Virus record (IMG/VR): IMGVR_UViG_3300032213_002044
Span: 770 to 64,769 of that record
Strand: one strand, 5' to 3'
Source of the DNA: a virus
Lineage: Duplodnaviria > Heunggongvirae > Uroviricota > Caudoviricetes
Length of the DNA stretch: 64,000 bases
Positions 10,444 to 53,698 of the stretch are shown in pieces. The translations under genes and the position numbers were made by a program. Below the pieces are notes generated by a model. That model did not search any database. It had not been told where the DNA came from and saw only the letters and a list, made by a program, of their open reading frames with translations. Each line of letters opens with the position of its first letter. The stretch's first letter is position 1.

Positions 10444-10446
10444 ACT

Positions 10447-10933: not shown

Positions 10934-10994
10934 AGTGTATCGTTTATATATTAAAGGTACAGTAAAGGTTTGATATATCCAAGCCTTTTACGGA

Positions 10995-36416: not shown

Positions 36417-37268
36417 ATGGGTAAAGTATCTAAAAGGATTACAAAGAGTGCTACAGAGCAAACAGTTACAAACACAATTGGAGAAATTGTAGAAAACAAA
36501 GTAGGAGGGATACCAAAATTAATATCACCAATAGAATTTAAAACAAGAAACCAAAAGAGATTGTATAAGGCAATCGAATCACACAAAAATAATATAGTTA
36601 TGGCTCATGCATTGGCAGGGGCAGGTAAAACATTCATAGGAATACAAAAAGGTATAGAGTTATTATACCAAAGGAATAGTGGAATATATAAAATGGTTAT
36701 TATAAACCCAACCGTCGATGTTGGTAACGAAGATAAGTTAGGTCACCTTCCTGGTGATTTGATGGAGAAGATAGCTTATCATAACGAATCGTCAATAGGA
36801 ATACTTCATAAAATTATAGGAGAAAAAGAAACCACTCGTTTGATTGAGTTGGGTAAGTTGGAATTTAAGGTTTTAAACTTCCTTAGAGGGATGAACTTTA
36901 ATAATACATACATCTTTATGGATGAGTCACAGAACGCTTCTCCTGCTCAGCTAAAAACACTCGTAACGCGTATATCAGATGATAGTAAGATGGTAATATG
37001 TGGAGACCTTTCCCAATGTGATAAATTTAGAGCAAATGGAGTACCTGCATATCAAAAGAGTGGGTTCTATGATATATGGAATAGATTTATGGGGGTAGAG
37101 GGTGTATATCAAGTGGAGTTCTCAAAAGAGGATTGTGTAAGGAGTGGTATCGTAAAGAGATTATTGGAAAGATATGATTTGGAAGAAGAAATAAGATTAG
37201 GTGAAAGTAAAACACAACCAGATTTGGAAAATTCAAAAAGTTTTTATACCTTTGTAGAAACCGAATAA
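36417..37268 (+). CDS. phoH: PhoH-like ATPase
   Basis: AHALAGAGKTF Walker A; IFMDESQNASPAQLKTLVTRISDDSKMVICGDLSQCD matches the PhoH DEAQN...TGDxxQxD block. Confidence 0.7.
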   Translation: MGKVSKRITKSATEQTVTNTIGEIVENKVGGIPKLISPIEFKTRNQKRLYKAIESHKNNIVMAHALAGAGKTFIGIQKGIELLYQRNSGIYKMVIINPTVDVGNEDKLGHLPGDLMEKIAYHNESSIGILHKIIGEKETTRLIELGKLEFKVLNFLRGMNFNNTYIFMDESQNASPAQLKTLVTRISDDSKMVICGDLSQCDKFRANGVPAYQKSGFYDIWNRFMGVEGVYQVEFSKEDCVRSGIVKRLLERYDLEEEIRLGESKTQPDLENSKSFYTFVETE

Positions 37269-37710: not shown

Positions 37711-38110
37711 ACCGGATTTAGTAGTATGGGATGAAGAACGTGGTTACTATCAGAGAGAATTAACTTATGGTAGTAATCACGGAGCTCCCGCTATTAAATT
37801 AGAGGATGTTTCTGGATGGAAATCGAGAGGGGTAGTTAGAGTTAACCATCACTTTAAATCTCGCTACGAAGAAATAAAAGCAGAAGCACAAAACCTAATT
37901 GATGAATACAATTGGAATGAGTTAGTTTATACCGCTCAATTCAATTTTCAACCTGTAATGGGGGAAACATATCATCTTTATATGAGAGAAGATGAATCTG
38001 TTTTTCTTTCTCTTATACCTCCGAATGCTTGGAAACAAAAATATATAGCTTCTTTTGAATTGGATAGTAGAGAGAAGTGGGTTAAGATAAATTTTGAACA
38101 TGAATTATGA
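37682..38110 (+). CDS. Hypothetical protein
   Basis: 142-aa ORF. Confidence 0.45.
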   Translation: MTLKKKKKDKPDLVVWDEERGYYQRELTYGSNHGAPAIKLEDVSGWKSRGVVRVNHHFKSRYEEIKAEAQNLIDEYNWNELVYTAQFNFQPVMGETYHLYMREDESVFLSLIPPNAWKQKYIASFELDSREKWVKINFEHEL

Positions 38111-38972
38111 TTTAGTAATTATTAACGGAGATTCATTTTCCGAAGGTAATGGGTTATATAGGCAATTTGATACATACAAAGAAGAATGTAAGTATTACGA
38201 TTATTGGTTGGAATTAAAAAAACATTCTAATAATGAGGTATTCTTAGACAGGTCTTTTAGTTGGGGATTAAAGATAGCAGAATTATTAGGTGTTCCACTT
38301 TTAAATATATCTAAGAGTGGTTCATCTAATAAATCTATTCTGCGTAGATGGTATTACATATCAGGCATTGAACCCAAAGTTAATCCTTATTTCATATACG
38401 ATTATAAAGTTGGAGAAGATAATTGGGTATTTTTAGAACCCAATAAAAGAATTTTTAAGAAGTATGATAAATCACTTTTAAAAAATTATAAGAATCCTCT
38501 ATGTATAACACAATGGAGTGGTTCATATAGAGCGGATATGACTTATAAGGCTTTAGTACATTCTCTTAATCCAGGTATGAATCAGGTTAATATAGTAGAG
38601 GATTGGCTTAAGCACAATGATATACCAGTTGATTCGGAAAAATTTCATACATTCTTTTCATACTTCACCAATTTTGTAATGACTGATTATTTAGTTCAAT
38701 ATGAAAACTTAAATAATCTAATGGCATATAATCAATTAATGCAAATGAATAGGTTTGATTCTTACTCTATCGCACATCGAATGGCAAATAGTATGGAGTT
38801 TGGATATGATAAGATACTTAATAATGTATTGCCTATGAATGATACCAAACGTATAGAAGAGAACACTTATACATTAAAAGATGTAGGTATTGAAAACTTA
38901 CACTATAGTTTAGAAGGACATGAATATTTTGGAGAATCTATTTTAAATATGATAGAAAAAGGAATAATATAA
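38094..38972 (+). CDS. SGNH/GDSL-like hydrolase (weak)
   Basis: N-terminal VIINGDSFSEGNG block-I motif. Confidence 0.4.
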   Translation: MNMNYDLVIINGDSFSEGNGLYRQFDTYKEECKYYDYWLELKKHSNNEVFLDRSFSWGLKIAELLGVPLLNISKSGSSNKSILRRWYYISGIEPKVNPYFIYDYKVGEDNWVFLEPNKRIFKKYDKSLLKNYKNPLCITQWSGSYRADMTYKALVHSLNPGMNQVNIVEDWLKHNDIPVDSEKFHTFFSYFTNFVMTDYLVQYENLNNLMAYNQLMQMNRFDSYSIAHRMANSMEFGYDKILNNVLPMNDTKRIEENTYTLKDVGIENLHYSLEGHEYFGESILNMIEKGII

Positions 38973-40099
38973 TGGTTAAAGCTTTATACATACACAATAA
39001 TGCTGATACTGAAATAAGAGATGGTGGGTTAGTATTCTATCTACCAATCGGATTTACTTCAACAACTGCATTTAACAAAAATGTAAAGTTAATAGAGGTT
39101 GGTAAATCTATGGACACATTCAATTATAACAATCCAACATATGTAAATAAATTAGTTTCTAAAATAGAATCACTATATGATTTTGATTCCGATTTAAGGT
39201 TTATAATAAATTTTGGCATAGAAGAAAGTATAGTTACAGATGATATTATAAATTTTTACAAAAAAATTCTACATAATAAACCTATACTTTATTTAACAAA
39301 TAATATAAATTATTTAGTAGAACCGAATTTTATTTTATATAATAACAACGAATGGGTTAATCAAAATTGTGATGTTCACTTTATAGATGCGTTAGATAGA
39401 ATTAAAAATGCTGATTTAGGTACAATAAAGAAAAAATTTATGTTTCTTAATAATCACTTCTCTCCTATTAGATTTGATATACTTAAATTAATTCATAAAA
39501 ATAATAAACAATCGGAAGGTAATATATCTTTTAATTTAATAGATTTTAATGAAGCACAATTCGGTATAGAATCGGAGGAATGGTTTTTAAAAGAATGTGA
39601 AGAGTATGGTATTAAATATCCTATGTACTATGATACCTATCCTGGATTATCTAAGATTAGTGAAGTAGAACAACAGAAAAAGAAAATATTAGATATAAAT
39701 CATATAGGCACTGTTCCAATGAATTATAGAATATATTTTGAATCCTTTTTTGAAATAATAACAGAAACTCACCATTTATTAAACGTGCCTTCAGGTGGTA
39801 CATATATTTCCGAAAAAATATATAAGGCTCTTAAATCAGGAAATCCATTTGTATATTATGGAAAAAAAGAAGTTAAGCAACAATTAGAAAAAAAAGGATT
39901 TACATTTAATTCCCCTATATATTTTTTTGGAGTTGGAGAAGAATTTATGAATCATTTAGAAACTATATTAAATAATGATATGGAGTGGTATAATGATGTG
40001 CAGAGAAGATATTTGAAAGAGTATATAAATAATGTTCATGAATATAGTAATCTACAACGGCTTCAAAGTAATATAATAGTAAAATACATATACTCATGA
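38972..40099 (+). CDS. Glycosyltransferase, GT10 alpha-1,3-fucosyltransferase-like
   Basis: C-terminal ETHHLLNVPSGGTYISEKIYKALKSGNPFVYYG resembles the FucT motif FENSxxxxYxTEK(I)xxA...P(I)YWG. Confidence 0.35.
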   Translation: MVKALYIHNNADTEIRDGGLVFYLPIGFTSTTAFNKNVKLIEVGKSMDTFNYNNPTYVNKLVSKIESLYDFDSDLRFIINFGIEESIVTDDIINFYKKILHNKPILYLTNNINYLVEPNFILYNNNEWVNQNCDVHFIDALDRIKNADLGTIKKKFMFLNNHFSPIRFDILKLIHKNNKQSEGNISFNLIDFNEAQFGIESEEWFLKECEEYGIKYPMYYDTYPGLSKISEVEQQKKKILDINHIGTVPMNYRIYFESFFEIITETHHLLNVPSGGTYISEKIYKALKSGNPFVYYGKKEVKQQLEKKGFTFNSPIYFFGVGEEFMNHLETILNNDMEWYNDVQRRYLKEYINNVHEYSNLQRLQSNIIVKYIYS

Positions 40100-40539
40100 T
40101 TTATTGGTTAACAGGTCAGCCAGGTGCAGGTAAAACAACCTTAGTAAAAATGTTATATACACATCTTCATTCTCTCCGCCCTACTATTGTAGATGGTGAT
40201 GATATAAGAGAGATATTTAACAATAAGGATTATTCGGAAGCAGGCCGTAGAAAGAATGTAGAATTGGCACAACATCTTTCTCACTTCATACATAATAAAG
40301 GAGGTCTTGCATTAGTATCATTAGTTTCCCCATATAAAGACCAAAGAGATTCTTTTAAACAATTAATAGGAGAAGATAACATCAAAGAAATATACGTTCA
40401 CACAACGGAGGAAAGAGGTAGAGAGGATTTCTTTGTAGAAGGATACCAACCACCGATTGAAAACTTTATAGATTGTGATACGACAGTTGATAACGAATTT
40501 CAATCCTATAGAAAATTATTACAAAAATTAGATTTATGA
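40096..40539 (+). CDS. cysC: Adenylylsulfate (APS) kinase
   Basis: P-loop WLTGQPGAGKTT, VDGDDIRE (cf. LDGDNVRH), and GRRKNVELAQHL...LVSLVSPYKDQR (cf. DRKENIRRVGEVA...AFISP..R). Confidence 0.75.
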   Translation: MIYWLTGQPGAGKTTLVKMLYTHLHSLRPTIVDGDDIREIFNNKDYSEAGRRKNVELAQHLSHFIHNKGGLALVSLVSPYKDQRDSFKQLIGEDNIKEIYVHTTEERGREDFFVEGYQPPIENFIDCDTTVDNEFQSYRKLLQKLDL

Positions 40540-40913
40540 AAAAATATGCAATGTACATTGGAAGATGGCAAAACTGGCACAAAGGGCATGAATGGTTAAT
40601 AAACCAACAATTAAACAAAGGAAAAAATGTTTGGGTAGCAATTAGAGATGTTCCACAGGATGAGAACAATCCAAAAACTGCTCATCAAGTTTTTTTAGAA
40701 TTAATTGAAGAACCGTTCTTTATTGAAAATAGTAATAAAATTTTAATCAGTATTATTCCTGATATTGAATCGGTTAATTATGGTAGAGGTGTAGGGTACG
40801 ATGTAATCTATCACGAGCCACCATCCGATGTAGCAGTAATTAGTGGAACTGCAATTAGAACAGGTCATATGACACCCGATGGAACTATAACATACGATAA
40901 AACCAAAGGATAG
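40536..40913 (+). CDS. Cytidylyl/adenylyl-transferase-like nucleotidyltransferase (HxGH motif)
   Basis: AMYIGRWQNWHKGHEWL matches the (T/H)xGH nucleotidyltransferase signature (cf. TagD GTFDLLHWGHIKLL). Confidence 0.45.
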   Translation: MKKYAMYIGRWQNWHKGHEWLINQQLNKGKNVWVAIRDVPQDENNPKTAHQVFLELIEEPFFIENSNKILISIIPDIESVNYGRGVGYDVIYHEPPSDVAVISGTAIRTGHMTPDGTITYDKTKG

Positions 40914-41533
40914 TGAACGGAAAAGAGAAACTAATATTATCATCGGATGCAATAATGATTGATGAATTGAAAGAGAAATATAAAAACAATTTTGTTATGC
41001 ACAAAGGTGAGAAATCTCTAATGGTTAAGTTAGCTGAAATTGCTACTAAAAACGGAGGAGATATTTTAGAACTGGGATTTGGAATGCATTTATCAGCGGA
41101 TGCCGTTCAATCTAATCCTAATGTTACATCTCATACAATCATAGAAGTTCATCCTGAGATTTATAAATATGCTTTAATATGGGCTAAAAATAAACCAAAT
41201 ACCGAAATAATATTAGGTGATTGGATTGATATACTACCTACATTAGATAAAAAATTTGATGGTGTTCTGCATGATACTCATCGTGATGAAAATATTCCTA
41301 AATTTTTAGATTATATAAAACCTAATTGTAAGAATGGGACAATAGTTTCATTCTTTTATTTTCCTATATTAGATAATCGGTTTAACTCATATAGACATGA
41401 ATTAGCTGAAAGTGAAACTGAATACTTACCATATAGTAAAAATAAATCGTTTAGATATAATTACGAATTGAAATATACTACATTTGACGGTGAATCATTT
41501 GTTAAGGATAAAAATATAAAAAATATTATATGA
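40913..41533 (+). CDS. Hypothetical protein; possibly a class I SAM-dependent methyltransferase
   Basis: GGDILELGFGM motif-I-like segment; weak. Confidence 0.3.
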   Translation: MNGKEKLILSSDAIMIDELKEKYKNNFVMHKGEKSLMVKLAEIATKNGGDILELGFGMHLSADAVQSNPNVTSHTIIEVHPEIYKYALIWAKNKPNTEIILGDWIDILPTLDKKFDGVLHDTHRDENIPKFLDYIKPNCKNGTIVSFFYFPILDNRFNSYRHELAESETEYLPYSKNKSFRYNYELKYTTFDGESFVKDKNIKNII

Positions 41534-41742
41534 TAGTAGAAAGAAAGAGACATATTGCTAAAACCATATCATATCGTATTGTAAGTACTTTAGTTGGATT
41601 CTTATTGATGTGGCTGATAAGTGGTTCAATTAAGATAGGAGCAGCGTTTGGAGTAGCAGAATTGATTTATAAACCCATTCAATATTATATCCACGAAAGA
41701 GTATGGTACAAATGGATAAAATACGGATTAAAAAATAAATAA
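41530..41742 (+). CDS. Small membrane protein
   Basis: 70 aa; two TM helices. Confidence 0.45.
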   Translation: MIVERKRHIAKTISYRIVSTLVGFLLMWLISGSIKIGAAFGVAELIYKPIQYYIHERVWYKWIKYGLKNK

Positions 41743-42311
41743 TGTTTTATAAATTTATTGAAAACTTTTTAAGTAAAGAAGAATGTGATTTTATCATTTC
41801 GTATGGAGAGGATAATGGATTGCAACAAATGAAATCATCTAAAATCCTAAACGGAAAAGTGATTGAAGCGGATATTGAATATAATGGTAATAAACGAATG
41901 GGTGGATATTTTGTAGATGATTTATTATTAGATTCTCGTATAAAAATTATATCGGATAAGATTTTATCAATTTCAAATGAGTTAAACCCGTTCAATGGAG
42001 TAACATATACATCTATCCCAAAGTACTCATTTAATCGTTATTCCGATGGGGATTTTTTAGAATGGCATGAGGATAAGCATGAAATAATAAATGGAGCAAC
42101 TATAACACTTATTATTCAATTAAATGATAATTATGAAGGAGGATTAGTTAAATACAATATAAATAAAGTAGAGTATTCAATACCAAAACAAATGGGAAGT
42201 GTGTTTATTTTTGATTCTAACATAACACATTCGGTTGATATAATAGAATCGGGTCTAAGATATTCATTGAATGTTTGGCCATCATCAATTAAAAAAGTTA
42301 GTTTAATATAA
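41742..42311 (+). CDS. 2OG-Fe(II) oxygenase, prolyl 4-hydroxylase-like (paralog A)
   Basis: YSDGDFLEWHEDK (HxD), downstream H (ITHSV) and RYSLNVW (RxS). Confidence 0.6.
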   Translation: MFYKFIENFLSKEECDFIISYGEDNGLQQMKSSKILNGKVIEADIEYNGNKRMGGYFVDDLLLDSRIKIISDKILSISNELNPFNGVTYTSIPKYSFNRYSDGDFLEWHEDKHEIINGATITLIIQLNDNYEGGLVKYNINKVEYSIPKQMGSVFIFDSNITHSVDIIESGLRYSLNVWPSSIKKVSLI

Positions 42312-42322
42312 ACAATAGTATC

Positions 42323-42889
42323 GTGTCTAATAATATAATCAAAACATTTGAAAACTTTATATCAACGGAAGAATGTGATTTTATTTTAAATAAATGTAAG
42401 GAAGAATTAACTTTAAAAGCTGCGGAAGTTTATGTTGCTAATTCTAATGATAGATATGATACAAAAATTAGAAAATCATCGATTGGTTGGATATCCGATT
42501 TGGGATTTTTAAATGAAAGATTGACAAGCAAATTAAGAGAAACTTTCAATATAAATGGAATGGAAGTTACAGGATTAGGAGATTTTCAATTTACTGAATA
42601 TAAAGAAGGTGATGAGTATAATTGGCACACCGATGGTGATAATACAATCTTTAGAGATAGATTTACATCAATCGTAATTCAGTTAAATGATGGTTATAAT
42701 GGAGGGGTTTTAGAAATTAAAAATATTAAAGGTGAATTAGTACCAATAGAAAATAAAATTGGTACACTATATATTTTTGATTCAAGACTACTTCATAGAG
42801 TAACACCGGTTGAAACGAATGTACGATATTCATTAGTAAATTGGATATCATTAGTTAAGACCGATTTAAAAAAACAAAATATAATATGA
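42323..42889 (+). CDS. 2OG-Fe(II) oxygenase, prolyl 4-hydroxylase-like (paralog B)
   Basis: EYNWHTDGD (HxD), LLHRV, RYSLVNW; same N-terminal (T/S)xEECDFI(I/L) as paralogs A and C. Confidence 0.6.
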   Translation: MSNNIIKTFENFISTEECDFILNKCKEELTLKAAEVYVANSNDRYDTKIRKSSIGWISDLGFLNERLTSKLRETFNINGMEVTGLGDFQFTEYKEGDEYNWHTDGDNTIFRDRFTSIVIQLNDGYNGGVLEIKNIKGELVPIENKIGTLYIFDSRLLHRVTPVETNVRYSLVNWISLVKTDLKKQNII

Positions 42890-44133
42890 AAAATGTAATT
42901 GTTATTGGAGGAGGAACTGCGGGTTGGTTGACTGCTTTATCCGTTAATAAATTTTGGAAAGATGCTTCCGTTACCTTAATTGAAAGTTCTAAGATAGGAA
43001 TTTTAGGTGCGGGTGAAGGTGGTACACCAAATTTCGGAGCATTCTTATCTCTATTAGGAATAAATCAAAATGATTTTTATAAGAGAACAGGGTGTACGAG
43101 TAAAATTGGATTAACTCTAACGAATTGGACAGGTGATGGCAAGAGTTCATCACATCTTTTTACAGGCCCTAAACCTAATGAGTTTAAGCAAAATTTTGCA
43201 TATCACTTTGATGCTAGAATGGTGGCGGAATATTTGAAAGAGATATCTTTATCTAGAGGTGTTAAATGGATTGATGGTGAAGTTGATAATGTAGGTAAGG
43301 AAGGAGATGATATCCATTCTGTTTCACTTAAGGATGGAACTGATATTAAAGATATAGATTTTATATTTGATTGCAGTGGATTTGCTAGAATTATCATAGG
43401 TAAAGTTCATAATGAAGAGTGGATTGATTATTCCAAATATCTTTTATTGAATAGAGCTATGGCATATTTTCTACCACAAGAAAATCAATATTCAATAGGA
43501 GATGTTACCCACACTAACATGATTTCAATGAATTCAGGATGGATGTGGCAGATACCATTACAACATAGATGGGGATGTGGATATACATTTAACTCAGAAT
43601 TTATTACCGTTGATGAAGCTAAAAAAGAGGTAGAAGATTATATTGGTAAAGAAATTACTATACAAAAAGTATTTGATTTTAAGCCTGGTACACATAAGAG
43701 GAGTTGGATAGGTAATAGTGTTGCAATTGGATTATCATATGGATTCATAGAACCATTGGAAGCTACTTCGTTGATGTCAACTATAATGCAATTAAGGAGA
43801 ATAATAAGTGCTAAATTCGATGTTTCTCTTAGAGATAGATTTAATGATACTTGCTCTAGTATCAATGAGCAAAATATGATGTTCGTTAGATATCATTATT
43901 TAGCCGAAAGGTTTGATACTCCTTTTTGGAAAGCATCATATGAAATGCCTATTCCTGAGAAGTTACAACTTATATTAGATGCGGATAATAATATAATCCC
44001 AAAAACAAATGCTGAATTACTGAAAATTTTTGATTTAAAAGAAGTGGATGAAATGGAATTAACTTTCTTTACTTATAATTATCAAATGATTTTTAAGAAA
44101 AATAAAAAAGTTTCAATAAAAGAATTAATATAA
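42886..44133 (+). CDS. Flavin-dependent halogenase family protein (tryptophan-halogenase-like)
   Basis: VIVIGGGTAGWLTA FAD motif (GxGxxG followed by W) and GWMWQIPL (WxWxIP), plus FIEPLEATS. Confidence 0.7.
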   Translation: MKNVIVIGGGTAGWLTALSVNKFWKDASVTLIESSKIGILGAGEGGTPNFGAFLSLLGINQNDFYKRTGCTSKIGLTLTNWTGDGKSSSHLFTGPKPNEFKQNFAYHFDARMVAEYLKEISLSRGVKWIDGEVDNVGKEGDDIHSVSLKDGTDIKDIDFIFDCSGFARIIIGKVHNEEWIDYSKYLLLNRAMAYFLPQENQYSIGDVTHTNMISMNSGWMWQIPLQHRWGCGYTFNSEFITVDEAKKEVEDYIGKEITIQKVFDFKPGTHKRSWIGNSVAIGLSYGFIEPLEATSLMSTIMQLRRIISAKFDVSLRDRFNDTCSSINEQNMMFVRYHYLAERFDTPFWKASYEMPIPEKLQLILDADNNIIPKTNAELLKIFDLKEVDEMELTFFTYNYQMIFKKNKKVSIKELI

Positions 44134-44134
44134 T

Positions 44135-44782
44135 ATGGAAAAAATTTATTTCGATGATGCCACTTTTATATGGAAAGGCAAATTAGATTTATCCATGTAT
44201 AAGGATATAATTTTAAGGGAAGCAAATGAAGTAATAGATTCTTTAAAAGAAGTAGTTCATACCGATGGATTTGGTTATAAAATAGAATGGACTAATGATA
44301 TAAATTTCAATGGGAACTTTTCTATACAAAATAAATTAGATGAGGTTTGTCAATATGGAATTGATGTATGTAAAGATATATACTTAGAGCAGTTTGGTAA
44401 AGAATTTAATAAAGTTAACACCGATGCATGGGTAAATGTTGTTCGTTCAAAAGAGCCGGTGCAAGAAAACTTCTATGATAAAAAACAAAAATACCATATT
44501 CATACAGAAATTAATAAGAAAACAAAATCATTTGTTCCCGATTATACATATGTTTATTATATACAGATGCCAGATACGATGGAAGGTGAGGATGGTGTTT
44601 TATATTTTAAAGGAAAGGATGATACAGAATATTGGATAAGACCTGAAGAAGATGATATAATAGTAATGGAAGGTTGGATGCCACACGCTCCAAACAATGC
44701 ACCTACCTCTACAATAGATAGAGTTGTATTAGCGGGAAATGTTGGATTTGATTTTATTAAAAAAGAAAAAAGTTTACTTTAA
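44135..44782 (+). CDS. Hypothetical protein
   Basis: 215-aa ORF inside the modification cluster. Confidence 0.5.
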   Translation: MEKIYFDDATFIWKGKLDLSMYKDIILREANEVIDSLKEVVHTDGFGYKIEWTNDINFNGNFSIQNKLDEVCQYGIDVCKDIYLEQFGKEFNKVNTDAWVNVVRSKEPVQENFYDKKQKYHIHTEINKKTKSFVPDYTYVYYIQMPDTMEGEDGVLYFKGKDDTEYWIRPEEDDIIVMEGWMPHAPNNAPTSTIDRVVLAGNVGFDFIKKEKSLL

Positions 44783-45507
44783 TGTTAATTGATAATAAAT
44801 TTGTTTATTTATCCTTACCTAGATGTGCATCAACTTCTTTTCATATCTCGTGTATTAGACATAATTTTGATGTAAAGCATGCCAATCCTAAGTTTGATAA
44901 ATCTTATAAAAATGATGAATTAATTAAATTAAGTAATATGGAATTGGTATATGATATAAATCATTTTCATGAGACAATTAATGAGTTAACAGAAACATTT
45001 GGTAGAGAATATGATATAATATCAGTTAAACGAAATAGATACGATAGATATATATCTTATTTTAATCATTGTATTGGAGAACTACAACGACATGACATTT
45101 TTATGATAGCGGATACATTATTAGAATTAAATGTAGATGATATTTTGTTTTATAAAAGTGAAGACCTAATAAGTAAAGAATCCAGACTTGATTTACTTAA
45201 CACATTTCTTAAAAGAATAGGTTATTTAAATTTTCATAAAAGATTAGAATCTTTATTATTACCATTGTTTTCACCCATGTCTGTTTACCACAATAATAAT
45301 TCTAACATAATTTGGTTTGATTTTACTAATTTAAAACATTTAGAAGAGTGGGTATCATTTAAAACAAGTAAACCTTTTAAGCTAGAAATGTTTGGTTCTA
45401 GTATTGATTATAAATCTAATATAATAAATGATGAATATTTTGTAAAAAAATATAATTCAATATATGATTACTATGATTTTTTTAAAAAACAAGATACCTT
45501 AATTTAA
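44782..45507 (+). CDS. Sulfotransferase-like protein (paralog 1)
   Basis: LSLPRCASTSFH PAPS 5'-phosphosulfate-binding-loop-like motif; paralog of the next gene. Confidence 0.35.
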   Translation: MLIDNKFVYLSLPRCASTSFHISCIRHNFDVKHANPKFDKSYKNDELIKLSNMELVYDINHFHETINELTETFGREYDIISVKRNRYDRYISYFNHCIGELQRHDIFMIADTLLELNVDDILFYKSEDLISKESRLDLLNTFLKRIGYLNFHKRLESLLLPLFSPMSVYHNNNSNIIWFDFTNLKHLEEWVSFKTSKPFKLEMFGSSIDYKSNIINDEYFVKKYNSIYDYYDFFKKQDTLI

Positions 45508-45508
45508 T

Positions 45509-46255
45509 ATGTTAATTGACAATAAATTTTTATATATTTCTCTACCTAGATGTGGCTCTACATCATTTCATTATTCATGTATCATAAATGGATTAGATGT
45601 AAAGAATTTAGATACTCGTGCTGACTATGAAAATTCTAAGATAGATTTTGGTTCTATAGATGAATCCAACATAATGAATTTTATAGAGCACGGTCATACA
45701 CCCTTAAGTGAACTACAGAATAAATTTGGATATGATTTACCTATAATAGCAACTAAAAGAGATAGGTATGAGAGATTCTATTCTTTATACAGGCATATTA
45801 TATATGATTTAGATAGAGTTGGTCTAACTAAATTATCTTCCGAAATTTGTAATCTAGATTTAAATGAATTATTCTTTTTCAATACAATGGATATTATATC
45901 AAAAAGAAAAAGATATGATTCTATTTATTCTTTTTTAATTAAATTAATACCTGAAATAAAGTATAATGAAAGTGATAGTTTTTATCAATATGTAATTAAC
46001 GTAATTGATATTTTATTAACACCTATTTCACACTGGCATAATCATGACAAAAATATTATTTGGTTTGATATAAATGAAACGAATAAGATGGAAGAATGGG
46101 TATCAAATATCACAAATATCGAATTTAAATTAAAACATGTAAATTCTAGTATGTTTATCCAACCTAAGTTGAAGTTGGATAGTGAATTTATAGAAAGATA
46201 TGATTCTGTATATGAATACTATGATTTTCCAAAGAGCAATAAATCACTATTATAA
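45509..46255 (+). CDS. Sulfotransferase-like protein (paralog 2)
   Basis: ISLPRCGSTSFH; RDRYERFYSLY region resembles the 3'-PB. Confidence 0.35.
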   Translation: MLIDNKFLYISLPRCGSTSFHYSCIINGLDVKNLDTRADYENSKIDFGSIDESNIMNFIEHGHTPLSELQNKFGYDLPIIATKRDRYERFYSLYRHIIYDLDRVGLTKLSSEICNLDLNELFFFNTMDIISKRKRYDSIYSFLIKLIPEIKYNESDSFYQYVINVIDILLTPISHWHNHDKNIIWFDINETNKMEEWVSNITNIEFKLKHVNSSMFIQPKLKLDSEFIERYDSVYEYYDFPKSNKSLL

Positions 46256-46548
46256 TGAATATACCAAACTATAGAGAAATATTTGAAGCATGGATAATTT
46301 CTAAAAATCCAACGGAAACGCAGAAATTGATGGCAAATGATAGGTTAGATATATGTAAGACTTGTGAGTATAGAAAGGAGATTTTTAAAGGTAATAAATG
46401 GTCTACTATATGCAAAAAATGTGGATGTCCATTGAGTAAAAAAGTATTTTCCCCGTTGTTTAATCCATGTCCAATGGAAAAATGGGAGGAAATTGATTCT
46501 AACTATATGCAGAAAGTACCCAAAAAATCAAAGAGTACTATAATATAA
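46255..46548 (+). CDS. Small Cys-rich protein (zinc-ribbon-like)
   Basis: CKTCEY...CKKCGCPL...NPCPME. Confidence 0.45.
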   Translation: MNIPNYREIFEAWIISKNPTETQKLMANDRLDICKTCEYRKEIFKGNKWSTICKKCGCPLSKKVFSPLFNPCPMEKWEEIDSNYMQKVPKKSKSTII

Positions 46549-46584
46549 AAAATAGATATTTATACTAAATTAACAGAATAATAT

Positions 46585-48075
46585 ATGAAAGGAGTGATAA
46601 TTGGCAGTGATTTGTTGGAACACAACGGAGATGTCAAGTTTATAGAAATTAACACTAATACAACTATCTATAATAATGGAGCCGAACTGCTTGATTATGA
46701 TAGTTTATTTGATATGCTTACTTCCAATGGGATAACCGAATTCCATTTTATTTGGACAGAATACGATGCGTTTACACCTCTATACGAACCATATAAGTTT
46801 AGGGAAATCGTAGAACAAAGGTGTTCTGATAATAACATTTCATTCCATGCTTATGTTGTACCAATGGGTTCTATTACAATTCCTTATATAGAAGATTCCG
46901 CAACTAAGTTTATCTTACGACAATCATATGATACAACTGCTCTAATAGATGAAACATATTGTGCGGATAAGTTTGGATTTTTCGATTTAATGCATAGTTC
47001 AGAATATATTCCAAAAACATTTTTTGATACGGCTGAAATAAATTTTGATACATTAGATTCTGTAGATTACAGTAGTAGTTTACATCCTAATATTTTAATA
47101 AAAGCTAGATATCCACAATATGATAAAGTTTCGTATCCAGAAATTCAGATTATTAGTAATAATTCTGAATTAGATAATATAAAGAGTAATCTTCCTACTA
47201 ACTATTTGGCACAGGAATTTATATATTCTGAGGATAATTTAGTTGAAGATAGATATTCTGTAATTAGAAGTATAGATATATTGTATGGTCCCAATTTAGA
47301 TGTAATAAATATGGGAGGGTATAGACAATCTACTATTTTACCAATTTCAACATTTGAGAATGAATTTAAAAGTGGTTCTACAATATTAGACCAAAAAAGT
47401 AGATACAAATATATCACAAAAATGATAGATGATGTAAAACATGAATATCATACAGATGAAGATTCTTTAATTGTAGATTATACTGGTTCACTACAAAGAG
47501 CCGATGCTATACAATTAGGTACTTATATTCGTTCAATTGATTTTGTTGATTTCAATGGTAATCATGCAGCTAACTTCGAAGAAGGAAAATTAGATGTATT
47601 AGGATGGGAAAGTACATTACAACAATCCAAAGATACGTTAGCTCAAACTACCTCTAGTTTAAATAATATTGTATCTGCATCGGTTGATACTATGTTTATT
47701 AGAGTTACATTGACAGATGGTAGAAGCTGGATAGATTCACCTGCGTGTACATACTATATAGAGGAATCTGGTTCATTAGCAACTAGATTTGAAATATTAA
47801 ATAAAATGTATGTAGGAGACAAAATAGTAATCACAAATGCGGAAACTTCTGAATTAACTACATTAGAAATCGCAGGATTAGAAATGGAACACACAAAAAT
47901 GACGGTATATGCTTTGGATTTTGAACCATCCGACCTTTTCTTAGTTGATTTAGGAGCGGGTAATTTTGGAGTAATGCACAACCCCTGTTGGTGTCCATGG
48001 AGTTATTGTGGAAATTGGTGCTTTAGTAGCTATTGCAGCCAATGTGGTGGTGGTCGTCCACCTGCGAAAGTTTAA
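46585..48075 (+). CDS. Large protein of unknown function with Cys/Trp-rich C-terminal tail
   Basis: C-terminal HNPCWCPWSYCGNWCFSSYCSQCGGGRPPAKV: 7 Cys, 3 Trp, 2 Tyr, 4 Pro in the last 32 aa. Confidence 0.55.
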   Translation: MKGVIIGSDLLEHNGDVKFIEINTNTTIYNNGAELLDYDSLFDMLTSNGITEFHFIWTEYDAFTPLYEPYKFREIVEQRCSDNNISFHAYVVPMGSITIPYIEDSATKFILRQSYDTTALIDETYCADKFGFFDLMHSSEYIPKTFFDTAEINFDTLDSVDYSSSLHPNILIKARYPQYDKVSYPEIQIISNNSELDNIKSNLPTNYLAQEFIYSEDNLVEDRYSVIRSIDILYGPNLDVINMGGYRQSTILPISTFENEFKSGSTILDQKSRYKYITKMIDDVKHEYHTDEDSLIVDYTGSLQRADAIQLGTYIRSIDFVDFNGNHAANFEEGKLDVLGWESTLQQSKDTLAQTTSSLNNIVSASVDTMFIRVTLTDGRSWIDSPACTYYIEESGSLATRFEILNKMYVGDKIVITNAETSELTTLEIAGLEMEHTKMTVYALDFEPSDLFLVDLGAGNFGVMHNPCWCPWSYCGNWCFSSYCSQCGGGRPPAKV

Positions 48076-48248
48076 ACTAAAAATTAAATACAAAAATAAA
48101 TAAAATGTTTAAAGTAAATAAAATAGAAAGACCTCAAACGGTCATTAAAGTTTTAGTTAAACCAATTTCGGTTGAACTTAAAACTAAAATATCATCTGCC
48201 GTTCAATCATTTGTAAATAGAGTTAAGGATAAACATTTGAGTTAATAT

Positions 48249-48767
48249 ATGTTAACACAATCAATCCTATTCACTAAAGAAGAATGTGATTATATCATTG
48301 GATTAAAAAATAAATATCCACAACAAGGTGATAATGGTAGATGGGAAGAATTTGATAACTTCATATACAAATTTCATACTCTGGAACATTTATCTGATGT
48401 AGATTGGGTAATCAAACGATTATGTGATTTTTTTGAATCCCAAATGGATTTGCATATTTTCGTAAGACCAACTAAACTTAATTTACACCATTATACGGAA
48501 GGAGATGAATTTGGTAAACATATAGATACTGGTACTCCTATAAAAGAATGGAATGTTGGTATTCTGTTAAACGAAGATTTTGATGGTGGTGATTATTTAG
48601 TGTTCAATAAAAATGATGAACCTATTGTAATTGATAAAAAGATAGGTAATGTGTGTATATATCAATCACAAACTCCACATCAAGTTACTCCGATAACAAA
48701 AGGAGAAAGATGGGCGGTGGCTATGTTCATACATAAATTTAGAATGAATCCTAATACACTTTTATGA
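48249..48767 (+). CDS. 2OG-Fe(II) oxygenase, prolyl 4-hydroxylase-like (paralog C)
   Basis: EFGKHIDTG (HxD), TPHQV, RWAVAMF; N-terminal TKEECDYII. Confidence 0.6.
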   Translation: MLTQSILFTKEECDYIIGLKNKYPQQGDNGRWEEFDNFIYKFHTLEHLSDVDWVIKRLCDFFESQMDLHIFVRPTKLNLHHYTEGDEFGKHIDTGTPIKEWNVGILLNEDFDGGDYLVFNKNDEPIVIDKKIGNVCIYQSQTPHQVTPITKGERWAVAMFIHKFRMNPNTLL

Positions 48768-49405
48768 AAATATTAATATTAGGTACACCTAGAAGTGGTT
48801 CAACTTCATTGGTTAGATTAGTAGATTCTCAAATGAATCTTTTTAATTATAGAATGTTTATCGAACCATTCAATCAACTTCTAGATGAAGAGATTACTTC
48901 AATAACACCTTTATTAGAATACGATAACATTTTAGTTAAGAATTTATTTTTAATAGGCAATGATGAATATCCAAAAGATTCATTTATGGATTTTTTTGAA
49001 TATTTAAATTGGTGTTATTCTTATTTTGATAAAATAATTATATTAGATAGAAAGGATAAACTTGCTCAATCGGAAAGTTTTGCTGTAAATGAAACATCTA
49101 TGCGAGAAAAAGGTATCGGATGGCATACACCTAAGATTTATGATGTTGATAAAATAGAACCATCTTATATCAAAACAATGATTGATAGATATACCAAATC
49201 AAGTGAAATCCTACATAATATATCATACAAACAAAAGTTTCCTATATTCTACTATGAAGATATATTCTTAGAAAAAAGTAGAAAACATATTGAAGAATTA
49301 TTTAGTTATTTAGATATGGAGGTGGATGAATCTAATTATATGGAATGGATATTATCGCCTGATAGAAGAGTTAGAATTAATAAAAACAAACAAAGTTTAA
49401 TATAA
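48764..49405 (+). CDS. Sulfotransferase (Stf0-like)
   Basis: ILILGTPRSGSTSL matches the PRSGST 5'-PSB motif. Confidence 0.5.
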   Translation: MKILILGTPRSGSTSLVRLVDSQMNLFNYRMFIEPFNQLLDEEITSITPLLEYDNILVKNLFLIGNDEYPKDSFMDFFEYLNWCYSYFDKIIILDRKDKLAQSESFAVNETSMREKGIGWHTPKIYDVDKIEPSYIKTMIDRYTKSSEILHNISYKQKFPIFYYEDIFLEKSRKHIEELFSYLDMEVDESNYMEWILSPDRRVRINKNKQSLI

Positions 49406-49974
49406 TGGAAAAGTTATTTTACAAAAATCAAAATTGGGATGAATTTCATGTCAATAGTGGTAAGATTTTAACGGATGTAAAAATTATATCCAATTCGGTT
49501 TATCACGAATTCAGAGGTTCTATATGGACTACATTTCATTCGGATTATTTCCCAAAGGTATTACCATCTGATTTACAATTTAAACACGATAGATTCTCAC
49601 AATCATATAAGGGTGTGTTGAGGGGATTACATTATGATGATAAGACTTGGAAACTATTAAGTTGTCCAATTGGTTCTCTCTATACCGTATTAGTTGATAT
49701 GAGACCTGAATCTGAAACGTATTTAAAATCGGAAACGTTTATTATGTCTCCTCAAACTAATATACAAATACTTTGTCCTCCAATGTTTGCAAACGGTCAT
49801 TATGTATTAACATATGATTCTTTATTCTGCTATAAAATGGCATACGAAGGTGAATACAATGATGATACTAAACAAAAGACAGTTAGGTGGGATGACCCTA
49901 AGTTGGGAATAGATTGGCCTACTAAAACTCCTACTTTATCTAAAAGAGATGCTAACGCAGCATTTATCGATTAA
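49405..49974 (+). CDS. dTDP-4-dehydrorhamnose 3,5-epimerase-like cupin (RmlC family)
   Basis: GVLRGLHYD (cf. RGLHFQ), PMFANGHYVL, VRWDDPKLGIDWP (cf. YDDPTLAIEWP). Confidence 0.7.
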   Translation: MEKLFYKNQNWDEFHVNSGKILTDVKIISNSVYHEFRGSIWTTFHSDYFPKVLPSDLQFKHDRFSQSYKGVLRGLHYDDKTWKLLSCPIGSLYTVLVDMRPESETYLKSETFIMSPQTNIQILCPPMFANGHYVLTYDSLFCYKMAYEGEYNDDTKQKTVRWDDPKLGIDWPTKTPTLSKRDANAAFID

Positions 49975-51004
49975 TATGAGTATCAAACCTTACATACGAA
50001 ATGAATGGGGGAAACTAAAAGAGATAATAGTTGGTAGACCAGAGTTTGCTCAGATTCCTACTATAAGGGATAAATCTCTACATACAATTGATTATGCTAA
50101 TTATACAGATGACCAATTTCGTAAGATACCATATGGAACTTATCCTAATTGGATGATTGAGGAAACGAAAGAGGATTTAGATAACCTATCGATTACATTA
50201 GAAGGGTTGGGTGTTAAAGTACATAGACCTTCTCTGATAGATTGGAGTGAGAAGTATTCAACTGAAAATTGGGAAGTAGATGGATACTATGGTTACTGCC
50301 CTAGAGATTCTATGTTAGTTATAGAAGATAAAGTTATTGCTACTCCTATGGCTCTCCGCCAAAGACAAAATGAAACGAGAGCATTTAAACATCTATTCGA
50401 TGAAACACATTGGGTAGATTTTCCCAAACCGAAATTATTAGATTCAATATACGATAGGGGTTTATTACCAGGCCCTACATTAAGAAATGATGAGCCTGTA
50501 TTTGATGCGGCTAATATCCTTAAGTGTAATAACGATATTCTATTCCTAATATCGAATACCGGTAATAGAGCAGGAGCTGAATATCTTCAAAAATGGTTAG
50601 ATGAAAATATGAAGGAAAAGTATAATGTACATCCTATTGAAGATGTGTATGCATTCATCCATATAGATACCACTTTTGTCCTCATTAGAGAGGGACTGGT
50701 CTTAGTTAATCCTAAAAGGGTAAATAGTACCAACCTACCTAAAATCTTTCAATCGTGGGAGGTTATATACTCTCCTGAGATGGTGGAGACGAATTGTTTA
50801 GAACATTGGGCAGAAGCATCACCCTGGTTGGGAATGAACACCTTATCCTATGATGAGAATACGATGATAGTAGAGGAACGCCAAATACCTCTTATGAAGG
50901 AGTTAAAGAAATATGGGGTAGATTCTATACCCGTTAAAATGAGACACGCTCGTACATTTAGTGGAGGCCCTCATTGTGTAACATTGGATACAATTAGAGA
51001 ATAA
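49949..51004 (+). CDS. Amidinotransferase-family protein
   Basis: C-terminal FSGGPHCVTLD matches the catalytic-Cys block of glycine/inosamine amidinotransferases; 351 aa is family-typical. Confidence 0.55.
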   Translation: MLTQHLSINMSIKPYIRNEWGKLKEIIVGRPEFAQIPTIRDKSLHTIDYANYTDDQFRKIPYGTYPNWMIEETKEDLDNLSITLEGLGVKVHRPSLIDWSEKYSTENWEVDGYYGYCPRDSMLVIEDKVIATPMALRQRQNETRAFKHLFDETHWVDFPKPKLLDSIYDRGLLPGPTLRNDEPVFDAANILKCNNDILFLISNTGNRAGAEYLQKWLDENMKEKYNVHPIEDVYAFIHIDTTFVLIREGLVLVNPKRVNSTNLPKIFQSWEVIYSPEMVETNCLEHWAEASPWLGMNTLSYDENTMIVEERQIPLMKELKKYGVDSIPVKMRHARTFSGGPHCVTLDTIRE

Positions 51005-51008
51005 TTTA

Positions 51009-51040
51009 TTTGGATATATCGATTATTTTTCGTATCTTTG
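51009..51040 (+). promoter_or_regulatory. Bacteroidetes-type promoter (TTTG-N20-TATCTTTG)
   Basis: ATTTATTTGG ... TTTTTCGTATCTTTG. Confidence 0.45.
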
Positions 51041-52618
51041 AAGACTAATAAAATTATAATGTCAGATAAGAAATATTTTTACGAAAAGTGTGATTATTTT
51101 AACGAACCTCATATTAACTTAAAATATGAAGATGTACTTAAAATGACACTTACCGAATTCGAAGAGTGGGTTACTATGTTCCGTAAGACCGTAGTTGATG
51201 AGTGGAACAAAACAGGAGCACCTCCACGCATTGGTTCTTCGGAGGCTGAGATTATAGACCAATTCTCTAAACTACAAACCTATAAGGTTGATAAATTTGA
51301 AGAGAAAGATGATGATGGAAATGATGTTATTTTTAACTTCAATAAATTTGCTACTCCGGTAAATCAATTCTTTCCCGCGATGTATAAGACGGGGATTGGT
51401 GGTTCTTCTTATGATAAACCAAAACCATCTATCTACGATATATTTTGTAATGATGAATTTCTTCCTGAATTTGCAAAACAAATGAGGAGATTGACACGAC
51501 AAGATGCTATGTATCGTTTCTCTAAAACATTAGCTAAAGATAATAAAGAACATCATAATTCACATCTTACTACAGGTAAAGAATGGATTGAAAAATGGAT
51601 GAATGGAAATGTGTGGGAAGGGCATGATTTTTGCTTAGCACAAACTGATAGTAGAATTGAATCTTTACCAATTACTGCTGAAGAGGTAAAAGAATTGTAC
51701 AAAGCAGGTGTGATTCAGTATAAACATATATCATCACTTAAAACTGCTAATTGGGGAGAAGATATTGATTCATTAACTGAATTGGAAAAACAACCTATTC
51801 AATTAAAGTGGTATCCTTTGGGTCAAACTATTTTTCCTGAAGCAACTGCGGCATTTAGAATTGGAATGGGTACACAAGCAGCTGTAAACTTTCCTCCACT
51901 AACTGCAAAGTATTTGTATCAGAAATATACAAACCATATTAAAGACCAAAAACAAATTAATATCTATGACCCATCTTCTGGCTGGGGAGGTAGAATATTA
52001 GGTGCGTTATCGGTTGATGATAGAAACATTCACTACATAGGTAATGACCCAAATACAGAGAATTATATTCCTGAAATTGGTAAGAGTAGATATGAATATT
52101 TAGCAGAGTTCTTTAATAGTAAAATACCTGGAGCATGTAATCCATTTTGGGGACACAAAAACACATATGAGATTTACAGAACGGGCTCAGAGATTATTAG
52201 TGAGCAAGAAGGATTCCAAAAGTATAAAGGTAATTTAGATTTTATATTTACTTCACCTCCTTACTTTGATAGAGAAAGATATTCCGATGATGAAACACAA
52301 TCATTTAAGAAATTTGGTAACTACGAAAGTTGGAGAGATGGATTTTTACGACCTACTTTGGTAACCGCATTTGAGTATTTACGAAATGATAGATATATAT
52401 TATGGAACATTGCTGATATTAAGATAGGAAAAAGTTTCTATCCATTAGAACAGGATTCAATTGATATACTAACCGAATTAGGAATGGAGTATCAAGGTAA
52501 AATCCGAATGACGATGTCTCCAATGACGGGAGTTGATTTAAGTGGTGTTAAAAATAGTATGAAGATAGGTGGTCAGTTCTACAAATATGAACCGATATTT
52601 ATATTCTACAAAAAATAA
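51038..52618 (+). CDS. Putative SAM-dependent amino-methyltransferase (N6-A/N4-C type, SPPY motif) with a large N-terminal extension
   Basis: Motif I-like IYDPSSGWGGR followed by motif IV FIFTSPPYF; paralog of 59802-61016. Confidence 0.45.
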   Translation: MKTNKIIMSDKKYFYEKCDYFNEPHINLKYEDVLKMTLTEFEEWVTMFRKTVVDEWNKTGAPPRIGSSEAEIIDQFSKLQTYKVDKFEEKDDDGNDVIFNFNKFATPVNQFFPAMYKTGIGGSSYDKPKPSIYDIFCNDEFLPEFAKQMRRLTRQDAMYRFSKTLAKDNKEHHNSHLTTGKEWIEKWMNGNVWEGHDFCLAQTDSRIESLPITAEEVKELYKAGVIQYKHISSLKTANWGEDIDSLTELEKQPIQLKWYPLGQTIFPEATAAFRIGMGTQAAVNFPPLTAKYLYQKYTNHIKDQKQINIYDPSSGWGGRILGALSVDDRNIHYIGNDPNTENYIPEIGKSRYEYLAEFFNSKIPGACNPFWGHKNTYEIYRTGSEIISEQEGFQKYKGNLDFIFTSPPYFDRERYSDDETQSFKKFGNYESWRDGFLRPTLVTAFEYLRNDRYILWNIADIKIGKSFYPLEQDSIDILTELGMEYQGKIRMTMSPMTGVDLSGVKNSMKIGGQFYKYEPIFIFYKK

Positions 52619-52620
52619 TT

Positions 52621-52999
52621 GGGGGTGCCTGGTTTTGACAGGTACGATGAGTTAGTACGTTGATGCAAGCAGGGTTAGATGGAAATCCTTAAATACCTAT
52701 CGAACAATAAACGACGTAGAATTATCTACAATGACCTTCGAAGATGCAATGGCATTCGTTGGTGCTGATTACGCTGTAGCAGCCTAATCTCTCCCGCACA
52801 CATCGTGGGATATAAAATAGAATGTGTACCAAGGTGGAAAAGTGATTGAACCCGAAATCGAATCACCTATTGTTTATCGGTTGCCGATGGTGAAGAACCA
52901 ACCGAATATTTTGTTTGTTAAGAAAAACAAACTAAGCTTGTGAATGAGGTTTATTAAATCCGTATTTGGACGAGGGTTCGACTCCCTCCACCTCCACCA
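52621..52999 (+). ncRNA. ssrA: tmRNA (SsrA), phage-encoded
   Basis: 5' GGGGGUG pairs with 3' CACCUCC-A-CCA including a G3:U wobble; T-arm GGTTCGACTCCC; tag reading frame ...GADYAVAA followed by TAA. Confidence 0.85.
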
Positions 53000-53008
53000 A
53001 TTTAATTT

Positions 53009-53698
53009 ATGATAAATAGCATTATATCCTTTGGTTGTTCTTTCTCTTGTTGGAGACAGGATTTTACCAAAGGATTTGTTGATTTAGTTGCTAATGATTA
53101 TGGAGTTCAGTATCAGAATCATTCTATTCCAGGTAACTCAAACGAATCTATTATACATGAATTCAATAAAAGATACCACCAATATGAATTAAAGGATTCA
53201 CTAATTTTATTTCAACCTACATTCTTAACCAGATATTCTTATTATGATTCTAAATTTAGAAACTTAATATCTTTACAGAATATGGTAAATCCTAATAATG
53301 GAGACGAGGTTGTTTCTAATTTTCAGGCAATGTTTGGAGATGGTAATGGAGAAACGATTGAATTTTATGAAAAGAAATTAGAACTATTCAGAGATTATCA
53401 AACATACTTATATAACGATGATTATGAATATAATAAACTATTGTATTCACTTTACAATATTCAAAGTAGTGTAGAAAAGATAGGTTCTAAAATAATATTC
53501 ATATACTTTGATACCTGGTATAAATCAACACCTATGTTCAATAAGATTAATTTCCTTAGATTTGGAAATGAATTATCTTGTCTTAATTGGGCTAAGAAAA
53601 ACGATTTAACTTACTCAAAGGAAGACCTACATCTATCGGAGGAAGGTAATAAAGTTTTAGCAGAGAAGATACTTAGTATGGGTCATAGTATGGAGTAA
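53009..53698 (+). CDS. SGNH-like hydrolase (weak)
   Basis: N-terminal IISFGCSFSCW block-I-like motif. Confidence 0.35.
   Translation: MINSIISFGCSFSCWRQDFTKGFVDLVANDYGVQYQNHSIPGNSNESIIHEFNKRYHQYELKDSLILFQPTFLTRYSYYDSKFRNLISLQNMVNPNNGDEVVSNFQAMFGDGNGETIEFYEKKLELFRDYQTYLYNDDYEYNKLLYSLYNIQSSVEKIGSKIIFIYFDTWYKSTPMFNKINFLRFGNELSCLNWAKKNDLTYSKEDLHLSEEGNKVLAEKILSMGHSME

Follow-up and report, generated by a model that had tools for sequence, protein, structure and literature searches.

The window analyzed here is a 64,000-nucleotide stretch of DNA from a virus of the Caudoviricetes (IMG/VR record IMGVR_UViG_3300032213_002044, positions 770 to 64,769), and positions 52621 to 52999 of its + strand are occupied by a complete, functional-looking gene for transfer-messenger RNA (tmRNA). 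ARAGORN reported this one-piece gene of 379 nt as the single tRNA-type gene of the window, with a tag of DVELSTMTFEDAMAFVGADYAVAA followed by a stop codon, and the Rfam model RF00023 matched it end to end (model positions 1 to 374) with a score of 101.2 bits (gathering score of 47) and an E value of 2.2e-38. These are the coordinates at which an earlier reading of the letters without database searches (the sequence-only reading) had placed a phage-encoded tmRNA. The scan with covariance and ARAGORN models that it had proposed as a check defined the resume codon as GAC at 52713 and gave the above-threshold, full-length match just described. No plausible protein open reading frame (ORF) overlapping the gene was found.

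The acceptor stem is formed by GGGGGUG (52621 to 52627) and CACCUCC, the latter being followed by the discriminator A and an encoded CCA (together 52989 to 52999). Its pairs, read directly from the sequence, are G1-C375, G2-C374, G3:U373, G4-C372, G5-C371, U6-A370, and G7-C369. The T-arm is GAGGG UUCGACU CCCUC (52972 to 52988), so that the 7-bp acceptor stem with G3:U, the T-arm, and the 3' CCA described by the sequence-only reading can each be located. Helix 2a pairs 52639 to 52646 with 52961 to 52968, and helix 2d pairs GCAAGC (52665 to 52670) with 52936 to 52941. Between helix 2 and the tag, pseudoknot 1 (PK1; 52671 to 52701) was read from the sequence with stems at gene positions 51-54/66-69 and 58-62/77-81, corresponding to PK1 of the Rfam model. 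It is followed by the resume-codon selector AAUAAAC (52706 to 52712) and by the tag frame (52713 to 52787; gene positions 93 to 167), which consists of the GAC resume codon, 24 codons in all, and a UAA stop. The helix 5 hairpin (52767 to 52789) has the strands GAUUA-C-GCU and AGC-C-UAAUC around the loop GUAGC and contains the stop codon. Further downstream, PK2 (52793 to 52827) was read as CCCGC/GUGGG and ACACAU/AUGUGU, a weak candidate PK4 (52876 to 52902) as AUCG/CGAU and GUUG/CAAC, and a hairpin, GUUUGUU/AACAAAC, lies at 52913 to 52932 ahead of the closing of helix 2. The minimum free energy fold of the gene (z = -2.0) recovered the acceptor stem, the T-arm, and helix 5, together with stem 1 of PK2 and the hairpin at 52913.

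The in-frame tag ending in ADYAVAA and TAA was thus confirmed by ARAGORN. The sequence-only reading had also put its length at about 25 codons, longer than usual, and this estimate was right because the 24 codons and the alanine carried by the tmRNA make 25 appended residues.

Relatives of the gene were collected from IMG/VR by three sequence patterns. The exact 3' 26-mer of the tmRNA was present on 64 contigs, a degenerate pattern spanning the final 11 codons of the tag on 103 contigs, and a tag-independent pattern (helix 2 plus T-loop) on at least 120 contigs. When ARAGORN was applied to the matched loci, 104 of them, with 84 distinct tmRNA sequences, were found to belong to one tag family with tags of 23 to 26 residues. 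All 26 of the distinct relatives tested on Rfam RF00023 passed the threshold (56 to 117 bits).

Purifying selection acts on the peptide encoded by the tag frame. For this analysis, 64 sequences were chosen only by the pattern of the last 11 codons and the 12 codons upstream of it were analyzed, which avoided circularity. The pooled Nei-Gojobori ratio of nonsynonymous to synonymous substitutions (dN/dS) was 0.25 in the ARAGORN frame, compared with 0.90 and 2.36 in the two shifted frames. Variation was mostly at third positions, with Leu encoded by CUU, UUA, or UUG, Ser by UCU, UCA, or UCC, and Ala by all four of its codons. The start of the frame was similarly consistent across the family. A U at -5 and an A at -4 of the resume codon are required, as for U85/A86 of E. 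coli tmRNA, and the AAUAAAC of the window fits this requirement. In nearly all of 64 members, AAUAA[AC]Y was found directly 5' of a resume codon starting with G (GAC, GCA, GCU, GGC, or GAU), and the corresponding sequence at the related locus L133 was AACAACU.

The front half of the tag contains a conserved module of 13 residues, which in the window is E-L-S-T-M-T-F-E-D-A-M-A-F (52719 to 52757). Across the 84 unique sequences its consensus is E-x-S-x-Φ-T-F-[ED]-D-x-M-x-F, where position 5 is M, W, or F. E1, S3, and T6 were invariant, and F7, D9, M11, and F13 were conserved in at least 93%, while the third position varied in all 13 codons. The module was also kept in members of the tag-independent search despite a different C-terminal half, as in ANVELSTWTFEDAMAFAEGELEMAA, ADVELSTMTFGDAMAWMESFDYAVAA, DEMSTMTFDSMMEFIGASEYAYAA, and AEEKSSFTFADALAFVGASEEVVLA. 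At the nucleotide level, identity was 78% in the tag core, 67% in the 5' part of the RNA, and 63% in the 3' part. The frame-specific dN/dS, the retention of the module, and the higher conservation of the tag core together indicate that selection maintains the peptide sequence of the front half of the tag. The module appears not to have been described before.

By analogy with other tags, the conservation of the module suggests a second, sequence-specific recognition function. Upstream tag residues are known to carry recognition information, since SspB binds the front of the E. coli tag and also binds the Caulobacter tag, and Lon recognizes the long Mycoplasma tag; these may be the best functional analogies for the module. 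A stronger version is that the long tag retargets proteins, with the module as the main signal, read by Lon or FtsH, an SspB-like adaptor, or a phage unfoldase or chaperone, and with the C-terminal Ala-Ala in a secondary role, much as specificity has switched to Lon in Mycoplasma. The purifying selection on the module, its persistence where the C-terminal half changes (as in ANVELSTWTFEDAMAFAEGELEMAA and AEEKSSFTFADALAFVGASEEVVLA), and its richness in aromatic and Met residues all favor such a role, as does the presence in the window of genes for GroEL, Hsp20, a cyclophilin, and an AAA ATPase. However, this ATPase (21485 to 22735), which was considered as a tag-specific unfoldase and dropped, has only a generic CDC48/AFG2-like domain. 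Furthermore, strong conservation is also seen in the C-terminal [V/L/I]AA, an argument for a ClpX-type signal still being in use. We therefore regard retargeting through the module as possible, with the balance of the evidence against it. More speculative still, and in our view rather unlikely, is that the 13-residue front half is a virus-specific address label read by a dedicated adaptor, unfoldase, or chaperone, either phage encoded or a hijacked host factor. If true, such a label would give this widespread clade of large phages its own control over polypeptides from stalled ribosomes, apart from the host SsrA pathway.

The ending of the tag was of particular concern, as the sequence-only reading had taken VAA to be a noncanonical degron through which phage-tagged proteins might alter or escape degradation by ClpXP and ClpAP while ribosomes were still rescued. 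The tag of the window does end in VAA rather than LAA, and VAA is the most frequent ending of the family (64 of 84 unique sequences, with LAA in 12, IAA in 4, YAA in 2, MAA in 1, and VLA in 1). However, the nearest relatives of the window, with flanking proteins 89 to 99% identical to its own, have YALAA (L007, L027, and L059), YAIAA (L038), or YAVAA (L040), the switch being a single first-position base (GUA, CUA, or AUA) in the loop of helix 5. Since near-identical phages alternate them by one base, V, L, and I behave as interchangeable. The terminal Ala-Ala, on the other hand, was present in 83 of the 84 unique tags. VAA endings are also found in Caulobacter (…EEFAVAA) and in many cyanobacterial tags. 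SsrA tags commonly end in a di-alanine such as VAA, and in vitro the chlamydial ClpXP degraded GFP-VAA and not GFP-VDD (PMC9601184). The critical element for E. coli ClpX is likewise the terminal Ala-Ala (PMC10862746). Given the V/L/I alternation, the conservation of Ala-Ala, and the published degradation of VAA-tagged protein by ClpXP, the VAA ending must be considered ordinary, and the proposal that it alters or escapes degradation is improbable. The tag of the window probably ends in a common aliphatic-Ala-Ala, ClpXP-type degron, and tagged fragments are probably degraded.

Selection also acts on the RNA structure. Counts for the acceptor stem, T-stem, and helix 5 were anchored at the ends of 64 unique family sequences, the consensus from whole-molecule MAFFT alignment and RNAalifold being shifted in register at the 5' end. 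All seven acceptor pairs were 100% canonical, with G3:U invariant and compensatory types (GC, CG, AU, and UA) at pairs 4 to 7. The five T-stem pairs were likewise 100% canonical, with three or four pair types at pairs 1 to 3. Helix 5 (GAYUA plus GCN with NGC plus UAAUN) had eight pairs, all 100% canonical, and its pair 8, formed by the third bases of two Ala codons, was U-A in 47 sequences and A-U in 17.

The rest of the molecule was examined in a MAFFT alignment of 50 sequences (A1). The structure written from the window sequence was paired in 79.8% of cells, compared with 34 to 43% when the partners were slid by one to three columns. Its covariation score was 0.340, the maximum for slid partners being 0.104, and none of 500 shuffles reached 0.340. 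In helix 2a, 84.8% of cells were paired and both sides had changed at all eight pairs. Helix 2d was paired in 100% of cells, with compensatory changes at two pairs, and was also found by RNAalifold. The hairpin at 52913 to 52932 was paired in 76% of cells, with changes on both sides at all six pairs of the main run. The sequence-only reading had also suggested a model-based definition of the pseudoknots. PK1 can be drawn with stems of 4 and 5 bp, with 62 to 76% of cells paired in the MAFFT alignment, some compensatory changes, and two noncanonical pairs in the Rfam alignment. PK2 (51 to 79% of cells paired, several compensatory changes) and the candidate PK4 (51 to 62%, with a compensatory change of G-C to U-A in L092 and L146) are drawable, and PK3 is ambiguous. 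The region of PK2 to PK4 had low posterior probability in the Rfam alignment. The compensatory changes that preserve the stems, combined with the dN/dS of ~0.25 in the tag frame, indicate that the tmRNA gene is functional and translated.

Some members of the family have enlarged tmRNAs of 404 to 444 nt (L065, positions 1090 to 1533; L114, 4549 to 4970; L119, 2141 to 2544). The additional nucleotides are inserted 3' of the tag, where the pseudoknots lie, and the tag is unchanged.

A tblastn search with E. coli SmpB, covering the window and 2.3 Mb around viral tmRNAs, detected no homologue, and SmpB was not listed in the Pfam scans of 60 window ORFs. The lack of a phage SmpB near the tmRNA loci in the tblastn search would suit an RNA that acts mainly as a decoy, titrating host SmpB and so blocking host trans-translation, for which the RNA of mycobacteriophage DS6A, consisting of the tRNA-like domain only, provides a phage precedent (PMC4131195; PMC11915505). 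A decoy, however, requires nothing beyond the tRNA-like domain, whereas this RNA has preserved its resume signal, frame, stop codon, and helix 5 as well, and its tag peptide is under purifying selection. We consider this explanation highly improbable.

The gene lies in a 32% GC window that is densely filled with short ORFs, nearly all of which are on the + strand. Upstream, an ORF of 526 residues (51038 to 52618, +) with a methyltransferase-like C-terminal part ends 2 nt before the tmRNA and is 92 to 97% identical in L007, L027, L059, L040, L038, L062, and L037. Downstream, an ORF of 229 residues with no family match (53009 to 53698, +) starts 9 nt after the CCA and is 89 to 95% identical in L040, L038, L059, L007, and L027. 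Promoter-like sites were not enriched at the tmRNA, and no + strand terminator was found after it. The recognizable products of the window are of the accessory kinds borne by large phages. Those for folding and quality control are GroEL (1122 to 2759), Hsp20, a cyclophilin-type prolyl isomerase, and the AAA ATPase. Others are PhoH (36417 to 37268), several 2-oxoglutarate (2OG)-Fe(II) oxygenases, a tryptophan halogenase, UvdE, endonuclease V, a T4-type RNA ligase, sugar and sulfate enzymes, an amidinotransferase-like protein, and methyltransferase-like proteins. The viral assignment is based on membership in IMG/VR, the gene style, and these accessory genes. The matches of GroEL and PhoH were considered as a guide to the host and were too distant or too generic for this purpose.

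Since tmRNA genes are common integration sites and IMG/VR includes some prophage borders, the gene could in principle be a bacterial ssrA, either chromosomal or at the edge of a prophage that had integrated there, a view also favored by the lack of any recognized structural phage gene among the scanned ORFs of the window. Identity to a host ssrA fragment had also been named by the sequence-only reading as an outcome that would overturn it. However, the gene is full length, is separated by 2 and 9 nt from co-directional ORFs, and is embedded in 64 kb of small phage-style genes. A search for the pattern GADYAxAA-stop in 185,579 bacterial and archaeal genomes, each representing one species, gave two chance-level matches, neither of them a tmRNA, so the GADYAxAA ending appears to be confined to viral contigs. 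In addition, the family is found on contigs of up to 270,865 bp, several being about 150 to 240 kb, with up to ~20 tRNAs and GOLLD RNAs near the tmRNA. A bacterial origin is thus scarcely plausible, and the description of the gene as phage encoded stands, with more than 100 relatives in IMG/VR and compact co-directional ORFs around it.

Neither blastn in distant mode with the tmRNA nor megablast with the 24 kb around it matched any of 50,697 deposited phage records (INPHARED), and tblastn of the 24-residue tag against deposited phages gave no match at an E value of 10 or below. In the searchable literature, "FVGADYA" had no match, and "ADYAVAA"/"DYAVAA" had a single match, in an unrelated paper on postnatal depression. 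Of 10 large ORFs neighboring the tmRNAs of the relatives, 9 (480 to 905 residues; L100, L086, L111, L133, L116, and L072) had no PHROG match at an E value of 1e-10 or below, and the tenth, in L127 (6150 to 10382; 1,410 residues), had one match, to a family of unknown function. The absence of PHROG matches for these ORFs and of any DNA resemblance in INPHARED suggests that the lineage is far from cultured phages. Classic T4-like phages were considered as an assignment and dropped, the large ORFs of the relatives having no informative PHROG match. The best cultured match of the amidinotransferase was in the 244-kb Synechococcus phage S-SCSM2R, a myovirus, at 39% identity, and the 30 kb examined of the homologous accessory region of that phage had a similar flavor and no tmRNA.

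Several further observations concern the surroundings of the tmRNA genes. tRNA genes were found within 3 kb of the tmRNA at 46 of the 104 loci. The sublineage of the window has its tmRNA away from tRNAs, and ARAGORN found no tRNA gene in the whole window. Full-length GOLLD RNAs (Rfam RF02032; 264 to 317 bits, threshold of 150) were located 1 to 3 kb from the tmRNA at 7 of the 26 loci scanned, within or beside the tRNA array (L129, 4933 to 5347; L029, 2589 to 2998; L135, 314 to 728; L067, 2810 to 3221; L069, 9321 to 9735; L091, 962 to 1384; L022, 85 to 494), and none above the Rfam threshold was found in the window. Together, the tmRNA, the GOLLD RNA, and the tRNA array appear to form a unit that recurs across this phage clade. 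In L022 and L029, the tmRNA is 92 to 95% identical to that of the window and adjoins tRNA-Met, GOLLD, and a tRNA array, with flanks that have no detectable homology to the ORFs flanking the gene in the window. Transfer of the tmRNA gene from one genomic context to another, or from phage to phage, seems to have taken place.

Other tmRNAs were encountered in the same searches. Many contigs sharing the 26-mer carry permuted two-piece tmRNAs, which may be viral genes or host ssrA genes at prophage borders (L001, L002, L005, L006, L009 to L014, L053, and others) with tags such as ANDNVAFALAA, ADAELVAA, ANAFKPEVTVPMSVFADQELVAA, and VASNDNDIVNYALAA; that of L053 adjoins seven tRNAs. The one-piece viral tmRNAs retrieved by the tag-independent pattern (L157 to L262) have varied tags, many of them of 20 to 29 residues, including GNTNFWSLVNAGVSTPVTEELLAA, AKTQSERVAEGEAILASIFADEAVAA, GDIQDAKRGVQEVLHGIFSEQPALLAA, and GESFVNADGKVFYMDTTAVSYDEPVLMAA. 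It may be that phage tmRNAs generally have long tags.

Two other regions of the window stood out. Positions 38000 to 50000 have a low GC content (0.25 to 0.30, versus ~0.33 elsewhere), and the ORFs there, such as those at 38094 to 38972, 44782 to 45507, 45509 to 46255, and 46585 to 48075, had no PHROG or Pfam match. At 10105 to 11240, the otherwise plus-strand window is interrupted by a short cluster of ORFs on the minus strand, where both the GC skew and the AT skew are reversed.

Phage tmRNAs have been listed in the genomes of mycobacteriophages and of Bacillus phage G (PMC4131195; PMC1475703). The tmRNA of Bxz1, a large cluster C1 myovirus with many tRNA genes, was checked directly (NC_004687, 100059 to 100493). 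It is likewise a one-piece tmRNA, lies within a tRNA array, and encodes a 25-residue tag, ATDTDATVTDAEIEAFFAEEAAALV, so there is a precedent for a long phage tmRNA tag. Unlike the tag of the window, it ends in ALV rather than AA. Its host is a high-GC actinobacterium, in contrast to the 32% GC of the window phage, and no sequence similarity between the two was detectable. Aligned from A-F, the tags of Bxz1 (L266, 10059 to 10493) and the window share a loose T-x-T...A-F-[F/V]-[A/G]-x-[E/D], possibly by chance, the comparison involving just two families. Huge phages from metagenomes carry tmRNA, sometimes with SmpB, in a translation toolkit in which tags were not analyzed (Al-Shayeb et al. 2020, PMC7162821). 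The present tmRNA resembles these in belonging to a large uncultivated phage and differs from some of them in that no SmpB was found beside the tmRNAs.

Compared with the bacterial one-piece tmRNA, exemplified by E. coli SsrA (ANDENYALAA), the RNA of the window has the same tRNA-like domain, including G3:U, the same helix 2, a resume codon that likewise follows a U/A selector, a stop codon in helix 5, and a hydrophobic-Ala-Ala ending, with a putative PK1 and putative further pseudoknots. It differs in having 24 tag codons, the modal tag length across tmRNAs being 10 (PMC11915505), in resuming at GAC (Asp) instead of GCA, in the conserved front module, and in being a viral gene without its own promoter or terminator. 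Since phage tmRNAs and long tags were already known, the conserved N-terminal module is the feature worth following.

Starting from a complete tmRNA with stems maintained by selection and a tag frame under purifying selection, we infer the following course of events, from its biochemical steps to the benefit for the phage and the role of the module. The tmRNA would be transcribed within a long, co-directional, polycistronic phage transcript. Excision from this transcript is presumed because the spacers are 2 and 9 nt and the gene has no promoter or terminator of its own; host RNase P and 3' trimming would release the RNA, as with phage tRNAs. The host alanyl-tRNA synthetase (AlaRS) would then charge it with alanine by means of the invariant G3:U, and host SmpB and EF-Tu would bring it to ribosomes that have stalled on mRNAs that are broken or lack a stop codon. 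Translation is expected to restart at GAC 52713, as set by the upstream AAUAAAC, and the ribosome would add Ala plus 24 residues before ending at the UAA within helix 5. The tagged fragments would be degraded by way of their C-terminal D-Y-A-[V/L/I]-A-A, and the front module would most likely be a second determinant, recognized by an adaptor, a chaperone, or a further protease. For the phage, the benefit would be that ribosome recycling and amino acid recovery go on during infection, while the mRNAs of the host are being broken down and production of its ssrA may have stopped.

Several points weigh against this account. The dN/dS values were pooled over nonindependent pairs, and the last 11 codons of the tag are fixed by the search pattern and constrained by helix 5 as well. 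Support for PK2 to PK4 is moderate, at 51 to 79% paired, to which the poor alignment of divergent regions by MAFFT contributes, and PK3 is ambiguous. The scan of cellular genomes covered the C-terminal eight residues and not the N-terminal module, whose role is proposed by analogy. Finally, capsid, tail, and terminase genes were not recognized among the scanned ORFs of the window or its relatives. With these points considered, we still judge it likely that the window encodes a functional tmRNA of a large uncultivated phage, the tag of which combines an ordinary degron with a front module serving as a second determinant.

Phage tmRNAs have been catalogued, and their tags have hardly been analyzed. 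Here, at least 104 viral loci, with 84 distinct sequences among them, share one tag family. Its peptide is held by purifying selection as the scaffold of the RNA diverges, which implies a role of the tag beyond its Ala-Ala end. The conserved tag offers a concrete way to test why large phages carry a ribosome-rescue RNA of their own. If the module turns out to be without a specific partner, the gene would be one more phage tmRNA; if it has one, viruses would have a new means of steering the quality control of proteins in the host, and the module might also make a useful orthogonal degron.

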